Shown: positions 11,916 to 59,758, counted from the stretch's first letter. The stretch: DNA of 64,000 nucleotides from Escherichia coli (GCF_017348835.2 NZ_CP071375.1); one strand, 5' to 3'. The notes: generated by a model from the letters alone, not told the origin. Numbers and translations are program-made.

Positions 11916-12239
11916 TTAGCCCAGTAGCCACATAAACAGTGCGCCAAACATAATGCCTACTGTCATCAGGGTGAAAACAATACTGTAGCGTAGCTTTCCG
12001 TCCATCAATGAATGCAGCGCAATCCCCACCACTACCGCGACGGGCATCAGCGCAAGAAAGAAAGGCCAGGTGTAGATAAAGAAGAACAGCGTGTTAGAGC
12101 CATAAATCAACATCGGCATCGCCAGCGCAAATAACCAGGAGATAAAACCGACCACGGCACCAGGCAGTGACCATGTGGTTTCTTCATCCTCAGTAAGGCT
12201 GTCGTTATTTGTTAGTGTAATGTTATGGCTATTACGCAT
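11916..12239 (-). CDS. ygbE: Inner membrane protein YgbE (DUF3561)
   Basis: 107 aa, hydrophobic; conserved position between ftsB and cysC. Confidence 0.8.
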   Translation of the reverse strand: MRNSHNITLTNNDSLTEDEETTWSLPGAVVGFISWLFALAMPMLIYGSNTLFFFIYTWPFFLALMPVAVVVGIALHSLMDGKLRYSIVFTLMTVGIMFGALFMWLLG

Positions 12240-16591: not shown

Positions 16592-16804
16592 CCAGTGCGC
16601 CCGGTTTATCCCCGCTGGCGCGGGGAACACTGCAGGTTTTTAGGGATAGTCACTGCAATACGCGGTTTATCCCCGCTGGCGCGGGGAACACGCAAGCCGC
16701 CCATTTGACGGTCACGCCAGTTACCGGTTTATCCCCGCTGGCGCGGGGAACACCCGGGATAGCCGATAACGATGGCGGCTCTGGGCGGTTTATCCCCGCT
16801 GGCG
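16592..16804 (-). CRISPR. CRISPR array 1 (cas-adjacent): 4 identical 29-bp repeats, 3 spacers
   Basis: Repeat CGGTTTATCCCCGCTGGCGCGGGGAACAC at 16592, 16653, 16715 and 16776. Spacers (plus strand): tgcaggtttttagggatagtcactgcaatacg (32), gcaagccgcccatttgacggtcacgccagttac (33), ccgggatagccgataacgatggcggctctggg (32). crRNA would be read from the minus strand. Confidence 0.92.
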
Positions 16805-16910
16805 CGGGGAACACACTAAGCATACATATCTGTTTTTAAACAAATTTATTCCACATCAACAATCTACCAACTAAATTCAAACATTTCCTTATTTTTAAAG
16901 AACACATAAC
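16805..16910 (-). promoter_or_regulatory. AT-rich CRISPR leader for array 1
   Basis: AT-rich ~105 bp between the cas2 remnant stop and the first repeat; shares caatctaccaac with the leader of the second array. Confidence 0.6.
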
Positions 16911-17237
<327 letters not shown>

Positions 17238-17241
<4 letters not shown>

Positions 17242-18806
17242 TCAGCAGCCTCCTGCTTTTTCTCCCTGGCGGCTTTAGCACTTTGCTTCTCCGCCGATGT
17301 TGTAAAATATTTCTTGCGCGCGGTCATGACGCGTTCCAAATCAACGGGCTCATAAGGATTGGTGAATACACGCTCGTCAAAATCCTGACGTGCGAATAAC
17401 CAAATTTCCTTTTGCCATTTGCCGAGTAATTCATCCGCATCCTGACCTTCTTCAATTTGGCGCACTAACCTCAGGAAGCGATGCTGAGTTTTGTTCCAGA
17501 AGTCGATATCCACAAAACTGAAATCACCCCTTGCACCTTTTGGATCGGAGAACCATGCTTCTTTCAATGCACTCCGTAACAGACTCAGAATCCGTGAAGC
17601 CGTTTGCGCAGCCAGCCGCAGCTTCGGTATCTGGCCTTCTTTTTTATTGAGCAATAGAGGGAAATGGTGTTCGTACCAACAGCGAACCTTCATATCTTCG
17701 AAATCATAACCAAATCCCCACAAGCCTATTTTTGTCTGCTTTAGATTGCTGGCATTGAAAAGCTTCACTACCTGTGCGGGGAGTTCAGTATTGTTTTTTG
17801 ATTTACCTTCCTCTATGAGGCCTAACCAGTCGCGCCAGATTAAACCACCTGGTTGTGGTTTAACTGAGTAAAACTCTCCTCCCTCTTTAAGCGGCATACG
17901 GTAAGGTGTTAGAGGATGCCTCCACATGACGTATTGCACCCCATTGTTTTTAAGTGCCATCAAGCTCAATAGAGCGCCGCTCTGACTACCGCAAATATCG
18001 CAGTTGCCAATTGAGGTTGTCTTAAAATCAATACGAATACGCCGAGGCATTCCCCAGTAGGCCTGAAGTTTATTGACTTGTTCATCGGTTATCACAGCAC
18101 CATCCAGTTCACTGGTACGCGTCGGTGCAAGCCAGGGAAAGACCAGGTCATCAAAGGTTTTTGGTAAAGGTAAATCGGCTTCATCCTGTGGCATTACGTT
18201 AAGCCACAGCTTGCGCCACAAAGGGGGTTGTGGATTGCCCTGATACTCCAGCAATTCTATAAGTGTGGTCAGCGGCCCCCCGCCACGTAACCCCGGATAG
18301 TAACCGCGTCCACCTTTGGGAGCATTCAGCTGGATTGAAAAAAGTGCTAAAGGCACACAATGCAGGCATATATGCTGAATTGTATCTCGCTTAATAAAAT
18401 GGTCTTTATTTCGTTCTTTTGTTTGTTTTCCTGGTATGTCAGGAAGAAGCGAAGCAATAGAACTAACCTTAACTCTTAATTCTTCGAAATCCTGCATAAA
18501 TGAAGGTGAATCTGGCCCGAACTGGAAAGCATGTTCTAATAACAGCAATGCTTCCCGTAGCTTTTCGGCTTCCAGTCCGTCTTCCCAGATATCATCCCAA
18601 CGACGATGATCTTTTGGCGCGAAGCTGGTTTGTAGTAACCCCAGCAAAAACTGCCAGGCCGCCCCCTGGAGATCTGCCCGCGGCGCAGCGATATCGACAA
18701 CATTTTCATCCGCCAGATCGACTGGCGCCAGTTTGCCTGTCGTTCCGTCTTTAAAACGAACGGGCAACCACGGGGTTGTCAGAAGTGAAAACGAGTTCAT
18801 ACGCAT
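17238..18806 (-). CDS. cse1: Type I-E Cascade large subunit Cse1 (CasA), apparently intact
   Basis: About 520 aa from MRMNSFSLLTTPWLPVR; GLRGGGPLTTL motif; directly downstream of cas3. The ORF-track start at 18860 is an upstream extension. Confidence 0.85.
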
Positions 18807-18889
18807 CCTCTCGTAAAAAAGACCATCCAGGTCGGTTATCCATCCTTTTCGGTGTATCAACTATTCAGAGAGTCTCTGTCGCAGGCATC

Positions 18890-21484
18890 TCAATCAACCT
18901 TGCCAATCAATCCCTCCCTGGCCGAATACCCGCAACTTTCGTCATCAGTGACTAAAATCACGTTTGCCATCTCCGGATCTTGCCGTTGTTCAACACACCA
19001 CTGCCTGAACGCTTCCCCTTCCAGTAAAGAAAATTCATCCCGATGTTTTTTCCACCAGCTTCGACGCACTCTGGCAACGCTCATTTCCCATGCGTGAGCA
19101 CCGCTGGCATAAGGCTTCACCACACCGTCAATACAGGTAGCCAGCCACAGGGAAACAGACTCTTCAGCCAGACGTGTCGACAGCTTTTCCGGGAGGTAAT
19201 CGTTGATATTGGCGGCATAGCCGGGCCTGAAGTTCAGCATAAACTTTTTAGCCATTGCGCGATCGCAGTAATATTTGCCCACTTGCTCCTGCTCGCTGCG
19301 GGCAAATCCTTCCGGCATTACCACGTCCTCACCGTAGACGGATTCAATAAGAAGCCGGGCTGCGTGTGGCATCTGAATAGCGCCTTGCTCACGCAATACT
19401 CGCTGCGTCAGCCAGATTCGCCCATGATCGGGGTAGACATATGCGCTGTTACGCATCGCACTGCCAAACCATTCGTCACCCGGAGAGTCGTCCCAGACGG
19501 GGGCCAGAATCAGCAATTCAGGAGGGGAACGCTCGTCTTTTCCATCACGCTTTAACTGACCATTAATATCGCGAATATGCCGTTGTAATCGCCCCGCTCG
19601 CTGGATCAGCAAATCAATGGGGGCCAGGTCGGAGATCATTTCGTCCAGGTCAATATCCACACTTTGCTCAATTACTTGTGTACAAACAATGACTTGAGAT
19701 GATCTTTTTAAACTACAATTTTTACCAAAGCGTGCCAGCGTTTCCGTTTCAATTCGCTGGCGATCGCTAAAAGCAAAGCGGCTATGAAAAAGTGAAAGGC
19801 TGGAAGCAGGAATGACGCCGCGGGCAAGTAACTGACGATAAACCTTAATAGCGTCATCGACAGAATTCCGGATCCAGGCGATGCATTTCCCCTGACTTAC
19901 CGCTGATTCGATACGCGCAATACATTCTTGTTCGCTATGAAGCCAACCCACGCTCACGCTACGCTCAACGTCTTTGCGCGTCGCTACCCGGTGCGAATGC
20001 ACATCGGATTTCGTGACATGCGTCAGCCAGGGGTAATCATCCTTTTCCAGGAACGGAGCTTCTTGCTGGCCCTCTGTGCCACGCGCAAAGGCGGCGACAA
20101 GTTTGTCGCGCTGCTGTTGAGATAACGTAGCAGAAAGCAAAATGACGCTGTTTCCGCCACGCACCTGTCGCTCAATCAACCCTTCAAGAATGTACGACAT
20201 GTAAGCGTCACAGGCGTGGATCTCATCAGCCAGCAGGATTTTGTTACTCAACCCCAGAAGCCGCAGATTATTATGTTTAAACGGCATCACTGCCATCATC
20301 GCCTGATCCAGCGTGCCGACGCCAATTTCAGCCAGTAAAGCCTTCTTGTTACTGTCGGCAAACCAGGCTGCACATCCTTGACTGAACGCTTGTTCATCCG
20401 GTTCTTCTGACCCGACTAAATCACCGGACCAGAGTGATTCATTAAAGCGTTCCATTAATGTACGGGCGCTGTGTGCCAGCACCAGGCTGGGGCGGGATTC
20501 TGGCGAAAAGAAAGCAAGCCAGGTTTTGACCAGCCGATCGTACATGGCATTGGCCGTTGCCATTGTTGGCAGGCCAAAAAACAAACCCTGTGCTTTCCTC
20601 GCAGCCATCAACCTGTGCGCCAGGATAAGCGCCGCTTCTGTTTTACCTGCGCCAGTCACGTCTTCCAGAATAAATAACTTTGGCCCTGGCTGGCTGATAT
20701 CCAGATCCAGCACCTTTTGCTGTAATGGTGTCGGGTGCTCAATAAAAGGAAACAGCGTATTAATTCCGGTGAAAGGTGCGGTTTCTGCTTTTGGAGGAAA
20801 GACGGTTAAGGCGTTTTGAGCCTGAACTAAAGTTTTCTGCCAGTAATCTTTAATATCCATTGGGTGTGCGACGCGTGGAAAAAATCGCGTTGACGAACCC
20901 GTCCAGTCTGCGAGTACGACTGTTGCAGAGATATACCAGGAAAGTTGTTTTAAAAGTTCAACGCCCTCGTCATCATCCCAGAATGTGGGAATCTCTATGA
21001 GCGGAAACAGTGCCTTGATTTCAAGGAGAAAATCTCGCGCGGCAGCTTTGTCTTCAGGCAGAAAATTATCCAGCTCATCAATACGGTCAGGTGGTCGACC
21101 ATGATGCCCGGTAGTTATGGACATCCACATCTCTATTACACGTGTAAGTTTACGAGAAGAGAGTGAAGATGAAGGAAGCAACTCCTCACATTCACTTAAA
21201 TAATAATTCCACAGCCAGTAACCCAGCGTTGAATGAGAGATCTTTTCGTAATTCTTTCTGGAACCTTCCGGAATCTTGAGTTCAGGGGCCAGGTAAAGTT
21301 GCTGAAAAGAGCGGGCAAATTTTCCAATATCGTGCCAGCACAACAACCAGGCGAAAAATTGAGCCGCCTGTTCCTTGTCAGAAATCCCTAATTGACGAAA
21401 ATAATCAGCCAGCCCGAAGCAATTTCTTTTAACCATTAAATAGCCCATCGCGGCCACATCCAGCGAATGCCAGCAAAGAAGGTG
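18890..21484 (-). pseudogene. cas3: cas3 (type I-E HD nuclease/helicase), codon 36 to stop; 5' end severed by IS629
   Basis: HD motif HDIGKF, Walker A TGAGKT, DExH box DEIHACD and helicase C-terminal region present. The frame is open upstream right up to the IS boundary at 21484 with no native start; the ORF-track start at 21457 is a GTG. Confidence 0.9.
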
Positions 21485-21538
21485 TGAACCGCCCCGGAAA
21501 TCCTGGAGACTAAACTCCCTGAGAAAGAGGTAAACAGG

Positions 21539-21865
21539 ATGACTAAAAATACTCGTTTTTCCCCCGAAGTCCGTCAGCGGGCGATTCGTATGGTTCTGGA
21601 AAGTCAGGATGAATATGACTCACAGTGGGCGGCAATTTGTTCCATTGCCCCAAAGATTGGCTGTACGCCGGAGACTCTGCGTGTCTGGGTTCGCCAGCAT
21701 GAGCGGGATACCGGGAGTGGTGATGGTGGACTCACCACCGCTGAACGTCAGCGTCTGAAAGAGCTGGAACGTGAAAATCGTGAACTGCGCCGCAGTAACG
21801 ATATCCTTCGCCAGGCTTCCGCTTATTTTGCGAAGGCGGAGTTCGACCGCCTCTGGAAAAAATAA
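21539..21865 (+). CDS. IS629-like OrfA (HTH transposase N-terminal protein)
   Basis: 108 aa, [22 protein letters not shown]..., HTH plus leucine zipper typical of IS3-family OrfA. Confidence 0.9.
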
Positions 21866-22752
21866 TGCCACTGCTGGATAAGCTGCGTGAGCAGTACGGG
21901 GTCGGACCGGTATGCAGCGAACTGCATATTGCCCCGTCAACGTATTACCATTGTCAGCAACAGCGACATCATCCGGATAAACGCAGTGCCCGTGCGCAGC
22001 ACGATGACTGGCTGAAGAAAGAGATACAGCGCGTATACGATGAAAATCACCAGGTATACGGTGTGCGTAAAGTCTGGCGTCAGTTGTTACGGGAAGGTAT
22101 CAGAGTGGCCAGATGCACTGTGGCACGTCTCATGGCAGTTATGGGACTTGCCGGTGTTCTCCGGGGTAAAAAGGTCCGCACTACCGTCAGCCGGAAAGCC
22201 GTTGCCGCATGCGACCGCGTAAACCGTCAGTTCGTGGCAGAACGTCCAGACCAGTTGTGGGTGGCTGATTTTACCTGGGTAAGCACATGGCAGGGCTTCG
22301 TTTATGTGGCGTTCATCATTGATGTGTTCGCCGGATACATCGTGGGATGGCAGGTCTCATCATCCATGGAAACAACATTCGTGCTGGATGCACTGGAGCA
22401 GGCGTTGTGGGCCCGTCGGCCGTCCGGCACAATCCATCACAGTGATAAAGGTTCTCAGTATGTATCGCTGGCCTACACGCAGCGGCTTAAGGAAGCCGGA
22501 TTACTGGCATCAACAGGGAGTACTGGCGACTCGTATGACAACGCGATGGCTGAGAGCATCAATGGTCTTTACAAAGCGGAGGTAATACACCGTAAGAGCT
22601 GGAAAAACCGGACAGAAGTGGAACTGGCCACACTAACGTGGGTGGACTGGTATAACAATCGACGATTGCTGGAAAGGCTGGGCCATATTCCTCCGGCAGA
22701 AGCAGAAAAAGCTTATTATGCTTCCATCGGAAATAATGATCTGGCAGCCTGA
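21865..22752 (+). CDS. IS629-like OrfB (DDE/rve integrase-core transposase)
   Basis: 295 aa rve domain; in the -1 frame relative to orfA, with an A6 run at the overlap. Confidence 0.9.
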   Translation: MPLLDKLREQYGVGPVCSELHIAPSTYYHCQQQRHHPDKRSARAQHDDWLKKEIQRVYDENHQVYGVRKVWRQLLREGIRVARCTVARLMAVMGLAGVLRGKKVRTTVSRKAVAACDRVNRQFVAERPDQLWVADFTWVSTWQGFVYVAFIIDVFAGYIVGWQVSSSMETTFVLDALEQALWARRPSGTIHHSDKGSQYVSLAYTQRLKEAGLLASTGSTGDSYDNAMAESINGLYKAEVIHRKSWKNRTEVELATLTWVDWYNNRRLLERLGHIPPAEAEKAYYASIGNNDLAA

Positions 22753-22794
22753 GTTCACAGATAAAACACTCTCCAGGAAACCCGGGGCGGTTCA

Positions 22795-22902
22795 GTGATA
22801 GTCGTCACCCCCTTCTTTCTCGTCGCGTCGGGTTTTTCCCCAGAAATCAAAGAAAGTCACAATATTTTTATCCTTCAGTAAACTTAAAGGATATTTACGC
22901 AT
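22795..22902 (-). pseudogene. cas3: cas3 5' fragment (first 35 codons) separated from the gene body by IS629
   Basis: Minus-strand translation from ATG 22902 gives MRKYPLSLLKDKNIVTFFDFWGKTRRDEGGDDYH, continuing in frame across the target duplication into ...LLCWHSLDVAAMGYLMV at 21484. Confidence 0.8.
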
Positions 22903-23094: not shown

Positions 23095-23247
23095 CTACTT
23101 CTTCGATTCGTAAGCGAGAACAGCCTTAAACTCCATACCACGTTCCCTGATACTCAACTCACACAACGAGTCGCCTACCATCAGCGTGAATCCCAGTACT
23201 GTACAACACAGTACGATGATTGCCACAAGGGCATATTTTGTCAGCAT
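23095..23247 (-). CDS. Hok/Gef-family type I toxin (50 aa; below the ORF-track length cutoff)
   Basis: Minus-strand [53 protein letters not shown]: one transmembrane helix followed by the Hok signature SLCE...AYE. Confidence 0.7.
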
Positions 23248-23308
23248 GTCTGTGTAAGTTCACAGAGATATTGCAATTGCCTCCGGATAAGTAAGGGGAG
23301 ATTGCACT

Positions 23309-24739
23309 ATGCAAATGCAGCATCTGATGGTTGGCTATCCTAAGTACTACCAAACGGCCGATTATGCGTTGAGGCTTTCAGTGATGGCTGATATAGCAAC
23401 AATGAGAATGAAGGCTCTGCACTTCTGGGATAAACACGGTATTTCTGCAGCTTCTGAAGCCTTTGGCGTGTCCTGCCGCACGCTTTACTGGTGGCGTCAG
23501 TTACTGAACAAGGAAGGACCTGAGGGGCTAATCCCGCACAGTAAGGCACCTCTGGTGCGACGAAAAAAACACTGGCATCCCGATGTGCTGAAAGAGATTC
23601 GACGCCTCAGGACAGAGCTGCCGAACCTCGGTAAAGAGCAGATTTTTGTTCGCCTGAAGCCCTGGTGCGAACAGCGCTATCTGGCCTGTCCGAGTGTTTC
23701 CACCATCGGCAGAATGATCGCTGCCGCACATGATAAAATGCGGATGATACCTGTGCGTCTGGGATCGCGGGGGAAGGCACTGCTTGTCAAAAAGCGGTCT
23801 GCCAAACCCCGCAGGCCAAAGCACTACCGCCCGGTAAAGACAGGTGAGCTCATTGGGATGGACGCCATTGAGCTCAGAATGGGCGAACTGCGTCGCTATG
23901 TCATCACCATGATCGACGAATGCAGCAATTACGCGCTGGCTGTGCCGTCACTCAACAGTGATATCGTCAATCACTTCTTCAGCCGCGCAGCCCGGTTGTT
24001 CCCGGTCGGTATCAGCCAGATAATCACAGATAACGGAAAAGAGTTCCTGGGAAACTTCGACAAAACGCTGCAGGAAGCCGCTATCAAACACCTCTGGACC
24101 TATCCCTACACGCCAAAAATGAACGCTATCTGTGAACGTTTTAACCGGACGTTAAGAGAGCAGTTTATTGAATTTAATGAGATTTTACTCTTTGAAGATC
24201 TGGCGCTATTTAACCAGAAGCTGGCGGAATATCTGGTGCTGTATAACAGCAAAAGACCCCACAAGGCGCTCGCACTAATGACGCCCGTGGAATATATTTT
24301 AAAAGAGAATAAAAATTGCAATATGTGGTGGACCCATACAATGTCTTGCCTCCCTGCAAAGAAGAGACTAACATTCGAATTGCTTAGGTTCGAACGCTGG
24401 CCTCAGGTTGATAGAAATATCGCCTGGGGCTTTTGTCCATCTGGAACCTCGCGAATGCTTAACGCCAGACAGCCTCAAGCACCCGACGCCATTCTATACC
24501 TGATAATTCTTCCAGCGGCGTTCACGTTTAAAATCAGGAATGCTGCTCGCAAAATAAAAACGCCCCCATCATTTCTGACAGAGGCGTTTAATTTATCCGG
24601 CAATATTTACCCTTCGTGTAACCCACATTCCCTTTTTAAGCCAAAGAAACGCGTTTCTTCTTCCGCCATGCCAGGTTCCCATTTACGGGTTGTATGGGTA
24701 TCACCGACCGATAAATATCCTTCGTCCCATAATGGGTGA
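23309..24739 (+). mobile_element. rve-domain (DDE integrase-core) transposase ORF, IS481-like; probably a 3'-truncated IS remnant
   Basis: HTH near the N-terminus (FGVSCRTLYWWRQ), catalytic core with GMDAIE...TDNGKEF...CERFNRT, ending about YNSKRPHKALALMTPVEY near 24300. The ORF then runs ~140 low-complexity codons without a stop and overlaps the cysH 3' end. No terminal inverted repeats recognised. Confidence 0.5.
24553..24590 (-). terminator. Putative intrinsic terminator downstream of cysH
   Basis: Minus-strand hairpin AAACGCC...GGCGTTT followed by TTTTATTTT about 20 nt after the cysH stop; the loop is long, so the hairpin is weak. Confidence 0.4.
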
Positions 24740-58448: not shown

Positions 58449-58502
58449 TGAACCGCCCCGGAAATCCTGGAGACTAAACTCCCTGAGAAAGAGGTAAACA
58501 GG

Positions 58503-58829
58503 ATGACTAAAAATACTCGTTTTTCCCCCGAAGTCCGTCAGCGGGCGATTCGTATGGTTCTGGAAAGTCAGGATGAATATGACTCACAGTGGGCGGCAAT
58601 TTGTTCCATTGCCCCAAAGATTGGCTGTACGCCGGAGACTCTGCGTGTCTGGGTTCGCCAGCATGAGCGGGATACCGGGAGTGGTGATGGTGGACTCACC
58701 ACCGCTGAACGTCAGCGTCTGAAAGAGCTGGAACGTGAAAATCGTGAACTGCGCCGCAGTAACGATATCCTTCGCCAGGCTTCCGCTTATTTTGCGAAGG
58801 CGGAGTTCGACCGCCTCTGGAAAAAATAA
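58503..58829 (+). CDS. IS629-like OrfA
   Basis: Identical 108-aa product to copy 1 orfA. Confidence 0.9.
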
Positions 58830-59716
58830 TGCCACTGCTGGATAAGCTGCGTGAGCAGTACGGGGTCGGACCGGTATGCAGCGAACTGCATATTGCCCCG
58901 TCAACGTATTACCATTGTCAGCAACAGCGACATCATCCGGATAAACGCAGTGCCCGTGCGCAGCACGATGACTGGCTGAAGAAAGAGATACAGCGCGTAT
59001 ACGATGAAAATCACCAGGTATACGGTGTGCGTAAAGTCTGGCGTCAGTTGTTACGGGAAGGTATCAGAGTGGCCAGATGCACTGTGGCACGTCTCATGGC
59101 AGTTATGGGACTTGCCGGTGTTCTCCGGGGTAAAAAGGTCCGCACTACCGTCAGCCGGAAAGCCGTTGCCGCATGCGACCGCGTAAACCGTCAGTTCGTG
59201 GCAGAACGTCCAGACCAGTTGTGGGTGGCTGATTTTACCTGGGTAAGCACATGGCAGGGCTTCGTTTATGTGGCGTTCATCATTGATGTGTTCGCCGGAT
59301 ACATCGTGGGATGGCAGGTCTCATCATCCATGGAAACAACATTCGTGCTGGATGCACTGGAGCAGGCGTTGTGGGCCCGTCGGCCGTCCGGCACAATCCA
59401 TCACAGTGATAAAGGTTCTCAGTATGTATCGCTGGCCTACACGCAGCGGCTTAAGGAAGCCGGATTACTGGCATCAACAGGGAGTACTGGCGACTCGTAT
59501 GACAACGCGATGGCTGAGAGCATCAATGGTCTTTACAAAGCGGAGGTAATACACCGTAAGAGCTGGAAAAACCGTGCAGAAGTGGAACTGGCCACACTCA
59601 CGTGGGTGGACTGGTATAACAATCGACGATTGCTGGAAAGGCTGGGCCATATTCCTCCGGCAGAAGCAGAAAAAGCTTATTATGCTTCCATCGGAAATAA
59701 TGATCTGGCAGCCTGA
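58829..59716 (+). CDS. IS629-like OrfB (rve transposase)
   Basis: 295 aa; one substitution (T to A) relative to copy 1. Confidence 0.9.
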   Translation: MPLLDKLREQYGVGPVCSELHIAPSTYYHCQQQRHHPDKRSARAQHDDWLKKEIQRVYDENHQVYGVRKVWRQLLREGIRVARCTVARLMAVMGLAGVLRGKKVRTTVSRKAVAACDRVNRQFVAERPDQLWVADFTWVSTWQGFVYVAFIIDVFAGYIVGWQVSSSMETTFVLDALEQALWARRPSGTIHHSDKGSQYVSLAYTQRLKEAGLLASTGSTGDSYDNAMAESINGLYKAEVIHRKSWKNRAEVELATLTWVDWYNNRRLLERLGHIPPAEAEKAYYASIGNNDLAA

Positions 59717-59758
59717 GTTCACAGATAAAACACTCTCCAGGAAACCCGGGGCGGTTCA

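Follow-up and report, generated by a model that had tools for sequence, protein, structure and literature searches.

We found that the cas3 gene of Escherichia coli PE164 is split by a copy of IS629, and we put at roughly 95% the probability that this came about through a single recent transposition into a chromosome that already carried a deletion in the same cas operon, a reading that concerns one assembly. The interrupted gene lies in the window (the whole stretch of 64,000 nucleotides that was analyzed), of which positions 12085 to 32200, the 20.1 kb around cas3, are 100% identical to the PE164 chromosome, NZ_CP114128.1. The source of PE164 was a piglet with diarrhoea in Nanjing, and the strain is an O108:H9 aEPEC/ExPEC hybrid (PMC12233904); the paper on its genome does not refer to CRISPR or to IS elements.

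The gene order at the locus is cysDNC, iap, a CRISPR1 remnant, cas2′, cse2′, casA, the split cas3, hok, and cysHIJ. Compared with a full type I-E set (cas3, cse1, cse2, cas7, cas5, cas6e, cas1, and cas2 plus an array), only cse1 is intact in PE164: cas7, cas5, cas6e, and cas1 are missing, and truncated remnants of cse2 and cas2 form a fusion. The surviving cse1/casA gene (17238 to 18800, minus strand), recognized by TIGR02547 with 554 bits, is the sole remaining Cascade gene. The residual CRISPR1 array (16602 to 16814, plus strand) consists of 4 repeats and 3 spacers, and it is one of two arrays that persist in PE164, with 4 and 6 repeats.

The deletion left a scar at positions 16911 to 17241 on the minus strand, delimited by PGAP calls and by comparison with the intact operon of strain EC974. 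In this fusion, cse2 breaks off after ~36 codons and runs, at about 17137/17138, into a cas2 gene lacking its first ~21 codons, and ~3.87 kb is missing relative to EC974, including most of cse2, all of cas7, cas5, cas6e, and cas1, and the 5′ end of cas2. EC974, whose casA is 98.5% identical, served as the breakpoint reference in place of Res13-Sevr-PER07-33 (L004), whose casA is only 86% identical. The junction shows only 2 to 5 bp of imperfect microhomology. An IS-mediated origin of the deletion was considered and rejected, as no IS scar is present at the junction, and illegitimate recombination is favored.

A closely related genome, that of F2_81 (pig, Australia; NZ_CP043542.1), allowed the two lesions to be placed in order. 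It has the same deletion junction, 100% identical over 1201 nt, together with an intact cas3. Since F2_81 shares the deletion without the cas3 insertion, the two lesions are independent, in agreement with the original prediction of a simple transposition event unconnected with the cse2-cas2 deletion. By parsimony, with this one sister genome, the deletion would be the older lesion, and the IS629 insertion a later one, private to PE164. Because the Cascade and adaptation genes were then already gone, neither interference nor acquisition could have been possible before the insertion. The proposal that the system had been inactivated twice is thus literally correct, but the element struck an already dead system and its effect was functionally redundant.

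The inserted element is a complete IS629 of the IS3 family, 1310 bp long and occupying positions 21485 to 22794 on the plus strand, as delimited by its ends, inverted repeats, and nucleotide identity. It begins with TGAACCGCCCCGG... and ends with ...CCGGGGCGGTTCA, and its terminal inverted repeats (21485 to 21509 and 22770 to 22794) are imperfect, matching at 22 of 25 positions, with TG...CA ends. It encodes a two-ORF transposase of the IS3 type, directed opposite to cas3. orfA (21539 to 21865, plus strand; 108 aa) corresponds to the N-terminal part of NF033516 (transpos_IS3), and orfB (21865 to 22752, plus strand; 295 aa), the catalytic part of the transposase, matches the same model with 311.8 bits (cut-off, 160). 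orfB overlaps orfA in the −1 frame, the two are joined by a programmed frameshift in the PGAP annotation, and an ALIL pseudoknot (RF01497; 21820 to 21936, plus strand), a stimulator of frameshifting, lies at the overlap with a score of 120.3 bits (gathering score, 50).

At the nucleotide level, the element and the IS629 annotated in phage BP-4795 are 99.5% identical along all 1310 bases, while IS629 copies of O157 Stx2a phages are 98.3% identical to it. Many E. coli genomes have copies with 100% identity, and at least one such copy lies elsewhere in PE164 itself. Close relatives are labeled by PGAP either "IS3 family" or "IS1203 family." IS629 has 32 matching places in the chromosome of PE164 and 27 in that of F2_81. 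The window contains a second IS629 copy (58449 to 59758), in gudP, with a 4-bp duplication, GACG. Both PE164 and F2_81 carry this gudP insertion, and in F2_81 its sequence matches the PE164 cas3 copy at 100% identity. On these features, the cas3 copy is a bona fide and apparently intact IS629, and its intact ORFs and ends make it plausible that it is active in transposition.

The element is flanked on both sides by GTG on the plus strand, at 21482 to 21484 and at 22795 to 22797, whereas the empty site of F2_81 has a single copy. Read in the direction of cas3, the duplicated triplet is CAC and corresponds exactly to codon 36 (His36). A duplication of 3 bp fits the 3 to 4 bp reported for IS629, whose mobility is described in the same study (PMC3271280).

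Deleting positions 21485 to 22797 in silico, i.e., the element and one copy of the duplication, yielded one ORF of 899 codons, free of stops and frameshifts. The 803-nt sequence across the reconstructed junction agrees with the uninterrupted F2_81 site at 803 of 803 positions, and the encoded protein equals F2_81 Cas3 (WP_096220534.1) over all 899 residues. The two genomes share the same context and the same cse2-cas2 deletion; F2_81 lacks the element, and PE164 has 1313 additional bases. With the IS set aside, a comparison of 18.8 kb between the two strains showed 1 SNP and 2 small indels. These results bear out most of what the original prediction had said of the insertion itself. The element described there as IS629-like is confirmed by its identity to the BP-4795 copy, the match to the IS3 transposase model, and the ALIL element; both copies of the 3-bp GTG duplication were located; and the seamless rejoining of the two cas3 parts is borne out residue for residue. 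The expected single ORF was recovered, although with 899 codons rather than ~890. Of the observations that had been named as able to overturn the proposal, neither was made: the excision ORF runs through the junction without a stop or frameshift, and the F2_81 site shows that the IS ends are not native sequence.

In the reconstructed ORF, and only there, the two Cas3 domains are part of one complete polypeptide, with TIGR01596 (cas3_HD) matching residues 38 to 233 at 92 bits (cut-off, 43) and TIGR01587 (cas3_core) residues 306 to 676 at 227 bits (cut-off, 102). The protein is homologous to the type I-E Cas3 enzymes of solved structure 4Q2C and 4QQW (Thermobaculum terrenum and Thermobifida fusca). 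It scores below the cut-off of the K-12-type equivalog NF007248 (430 versus 569), which indicates a non-K-12 allele class. In the alignment, residues 19 to 23 (DFWGK) correspond to RFWAK of T. fusca Cas3, and H41 corresponds to H37, which in the T. fusca structure is the first of the metal-binding histidines in the HD site. The first HD-motif histidine thus follows five codons after the break, and the larger fragment lacks a conserved N-terminal segment.

That fragment, the cas3 body (18890 to 21484, minus strand), was delimited by ORF and frame analysis and comprises codons 36/37 to 899 plus the stop codon. It retains all HD-nuclease motifs and the helicase core, and it has no native start codon. 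The minus-strand frame from 18890 is open up to the element and for a further 46 codons inside it, the first in-frame stop being at 21622 to 21620. The open stretch inside the IS contains no ATG, GTG, or TTG, and only the codons ATT, CTG, ATA, and ATC are found there. The first canonical in-frame start of the body is GTG at 21457, followed by ATG at 21448, so that an uninterrupted Cas3 coding sequence with a start of its own is absent, the body having no canonical start before residue 45. On the far side of the element, ORF analysis and the RefSeq annotation both identified an orphan 5′ fragment of 36 codons (22795 to 22902, minus strand; MRKYPL...GGDDYH). The ORF from ATG 22902 reads MRKYPLSLLKDKNIVTFFDFWGKTRRDEKEGGDDYH and stops at a TGA that is the first triplet of the IS terminus on the minus strand; RefSeq lists it as a partial "hypothetical protein" pseudogene. 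The frame analysis agrees with the earlier description of a body without a native start whose frame stays open to the IS. For the 5′ fragment, the predicted start was right, while its length is 36 rather than 35 codons, and the N-terminal peptide given at the time had dropped the residues KE.

We propose that IS629, which as a member of the IS3 family moves by a copy-out/paste-in route, jumped between cas3 codons 36 and 37 and in doing so duplicated GTG. The identity between the F2_81 gudP copy and the cas3 copy fits a recent event of this kind that started from a resident IS629, in a lineage with about 30 matching places. The insertion separates the promoter, the start codon, and the first 36 codons, including the conserved FWGK, from the remainder of the gene. 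The 5′ fragment keeps the native promoter region and ends at the TGA of the IS terminus, and the body is left without a canonical start codon and probably without a promoter. With a body in this state and a 5′ fragment that is terminated, cas3 is a pseudogene, and we infer from the sequence that no Cas3 is made in PE164.

Most likely, the insertion was neutral, a further step in the decay of an already dead locus in a genome rich in IS629, and nothing that worked would have been abolished. The same transposition could instead have been selected, e.g., by relieving a cost of orphan Cas3 after the loss of Cascade. IS629/IS1203 insertions do occur in the cas locus of at least three other complete genomes (in cas3 of 13TMH22, in casA of EL361, and in casA of O103:H2 strain 129), and cas inactivation by an IS can be adaptive when CRISPR is toxic (PMC10359306). 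We nevertheless consider selection unlikely. The cas3 gene of F2_81 has stayed intact alongside the same deletion, PE164 alone among 5,426 genomes carries the insertion, targeting is impossible without Cascade, and the type I-E system of E. coli is reported to be silenced by H-NS under normal conditions (PMC10359306).

A different consequence of the insertion would follow if the body were expressed. RefSeq annotates LZG51_RS04920 (WP_410054725.1) as an intact Cas3′ protein of 886 aa that starts with ATT at 21550, inside the IS. In this scenario, the left end of the IS would supply both transcription and the ATT start, 22 IS-encoded residues would replace the first 36, and the N-terminally remodeled Cas3 would act as a stand-alone, Cascade-independent helicase-nuclease; a milder version would hold only that loss of the orphan Cas3 was selected once Cascade had been deleted. 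The frame is indeed open for 46 codons into the left end of the IS, PGAP annotates a non-pseudo protein, and every HD and helicase motif lies downstream of the break. Against it, the open stretch offers none of the three canonical start codons, the first ones available (GTG 21457 and ATG 21448) are reached only past the first HD histidine, the body lacks the conserved FWGK, and Cascade, the recruiter of Cas3, is deleted. A scan for promoter consensus sequences found 5 sites versus 3.0 ± 2.2 expected by chance, and those on the minus strand lie only upstream of the native cas3 start. Neither the IS nor its left end has a minus-strand site that could act as an outward promoter toward cas3, and no promoter-like site on this strand separates the break from the region of the native promoter; with a total so near chance, the scan says little about promoters here. 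Taken together, expression of a remodeled Cas3 is very unlikely, and the 886-aa Cas3′ coding sequence is best regarded as an annotation artifact that should be listed as a pseudogene.

It is highly improbable that the insertion was created by mis-assembly, i.e., that a multicopy IS629 with about 30 matching places was wrongly built into cas3. The abundance of IS629 in PE164 and the presence of the insertion in one assembly would allow for this. A mis-join, however, would not be expected to leave a perfect 3-bp duplication of a sequence that the empty site has once, whereas real transposition leaves just such a footprint. Both flanks are otherwise collinear with and identical to those of F2_81. 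In addition, NZ_CP114128.1 is the record of a finished circular chromosome. That the IS was ancestral at this site and was lost from F2_81 and others by precise excision, a formal possibility with nothing specific in its favor, has a negligible probability, given an uninterrupted site in 2,729 genomes of many lineages, the rarity of precise excision of an IS with one duplicate copy, and the 100% identity of the cas3 copy to other copies, which marks it as young. A recent transposition into cas3 of PE164 thus accounts best for the data.

We then placed this event among known insertions. Using the IS and both flanks as a query, near-full matches were obtained in 2 of 5,426 complete E. coli genomes, PE164 and 13TMH22 (NZ_CP019256.1), and PE164 is the only one with an insertion at this cas3 site. 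The cas3::IS1203 allele of 13TMH22 involves the same IS group, the same gene, and the same orientation relative to cas3, but its element lies near codon 540 instead of codon 36, and in 13TMH22 neither the array nor any other part of the cas operon is damaged. The 13TMH22 insertion is an independent event in another strain. In a literature search for IS629 with cas3, three papers name both, none of them in its title or abstract; the PE164 insertion site appears to be unreported and is one further instance of a known process.

The practical value of the finding is small and lies in correcting the RefSeq annotation of LZG51_RS04920. Moreover, among pig O108:H9-like E. coli, the insertion is a clean marker by which PCR could tell PE164 from its close relative F2_81. 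The locus also illustrates an ordered decay of CRISPR-Cas, in which the cas3 gene that a deletion of Cascade and adaptation genes had spared was then hit by an IS; cse1 and two short arrays are still present.

IS elements are documented to insert naturally into cas genes, those of type I-E systems among them, and removal of the IS together with one duplicate copy restores cas function (Sheng et al. 2023, Nat Commun, PMC10359306). The PE164 case resembles the one reported there: in both, a type I-E cas gene is broken by an IS that is flanked by a target duplication, and excision restores the gene. The two differ in their setting: the published insertion was proposed as an inactivating, selectable event, whereas the PE164 system was already disabled by deletion and the IS is a redundant second hit. 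Both the mobility of IS629 and the inactivation of cas genes by IS elements are established, and no new question is opened by this case. Compared with IS629/IS1203 elements of E. coli and Shigella, the PE164 cas3 copy is alike in its size, its ends, its −1 frameshift, its ALIL pseudoknot, and its 3-bp target duplication; it shows no substantial difference from them and represents one further copy at a new site.

Two candidate initiation codons were considered for cas3, the gene split by a complete IS629 copy at 21485-22794. One is the GTG at 22858-22860 (codon 15 in the ORF as annotated), which has an AAGGA ahead of it, plausibly spaced for a Shine-Dalgarno sequence. The other, the ATG at 22902, has no obvious Shine-Dalgarno sequence ahead of it, and the alignment to the NCBIfam Cas3 model begins only at residue 14 of the annotated ORF. 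These features suggested that the GTG may be the true cas3 start, in which case the orphan 5′ fragment would shrink from 36 codons to 22. Whichever start holds, the conclusion that cas3 is split by IS629 stands. RefSeq annotation of strain PE164 is problematic at two places here: the cas3 CDS (18890-21550) is stretched to an ATT start within IS629 and carries no pseudogene flag, and a "hypothetical protein" CDS (16650-16823) lies wholly inside the 4-repeat CRISPR1 remnant, which itself has no CRISPR annotation.

Comparison of the cas locus (17133-21484) with that of strain Res13-Sevr-PER07-33 showed that the PE164 locus is a mosaic. While the 5′ end of cas3 shares 99.9% identity with Res13-Sevr-PER07-33, the identity in casA falls to 86% with that strain but reaches 98.5% with EC974, a strain with an intact cas operon, and this discordance implies an earlier recombination inside the cas3-casA region. 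The orphan CRISPR2 array (40967-41301; 6 repeats of the variant ending in AACTC), located between queE and ygcE, has been kept despite loss of the cas genes required for its use. Elsewhere in the window, the PE164 annotation lists the MFS transporter gene yqcE (37620-38824) as a pseudogene with a frameshift.

A different element, an IS481-like sequence of about 1.09 kb with an integrase-core ORF (23252-24340), is accompanied by a 6-bp duplication (ATGTCT). It directly abuts the start codon of hok (23095-23247, minus strand), separating hok both from the sequence that lay upstream of it and from its antisense RNA, sok (24335-24484, minus strand; RF01794, 105 bits). This insertion is old, since it is common to E2348/69 and further strains from varied hosts. 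A 6-bp deletion inside the element is private to PE164, and an 8-bp deletion was found at its right junction in the sister strain F2_81.

A second IS629 copy (58449-59758) interrupts gudP, where it is flanked by a 4-bp duplication (GACG), and the insertion occupies the identical site in PE164 and F2_81. The PE164 gudP copy carries 3 substitutions and is marked as frameshifted by PGAP, and the F2_81 gudP copy is identical to the IS629 copy in PE164 cas3. Independent insertions of IS629 or IS1203 were also identified in the cas loci of other genomes, falling in cas3 of 13TMH22 and in casA of both EL361 and the O103:H2 strain 129.
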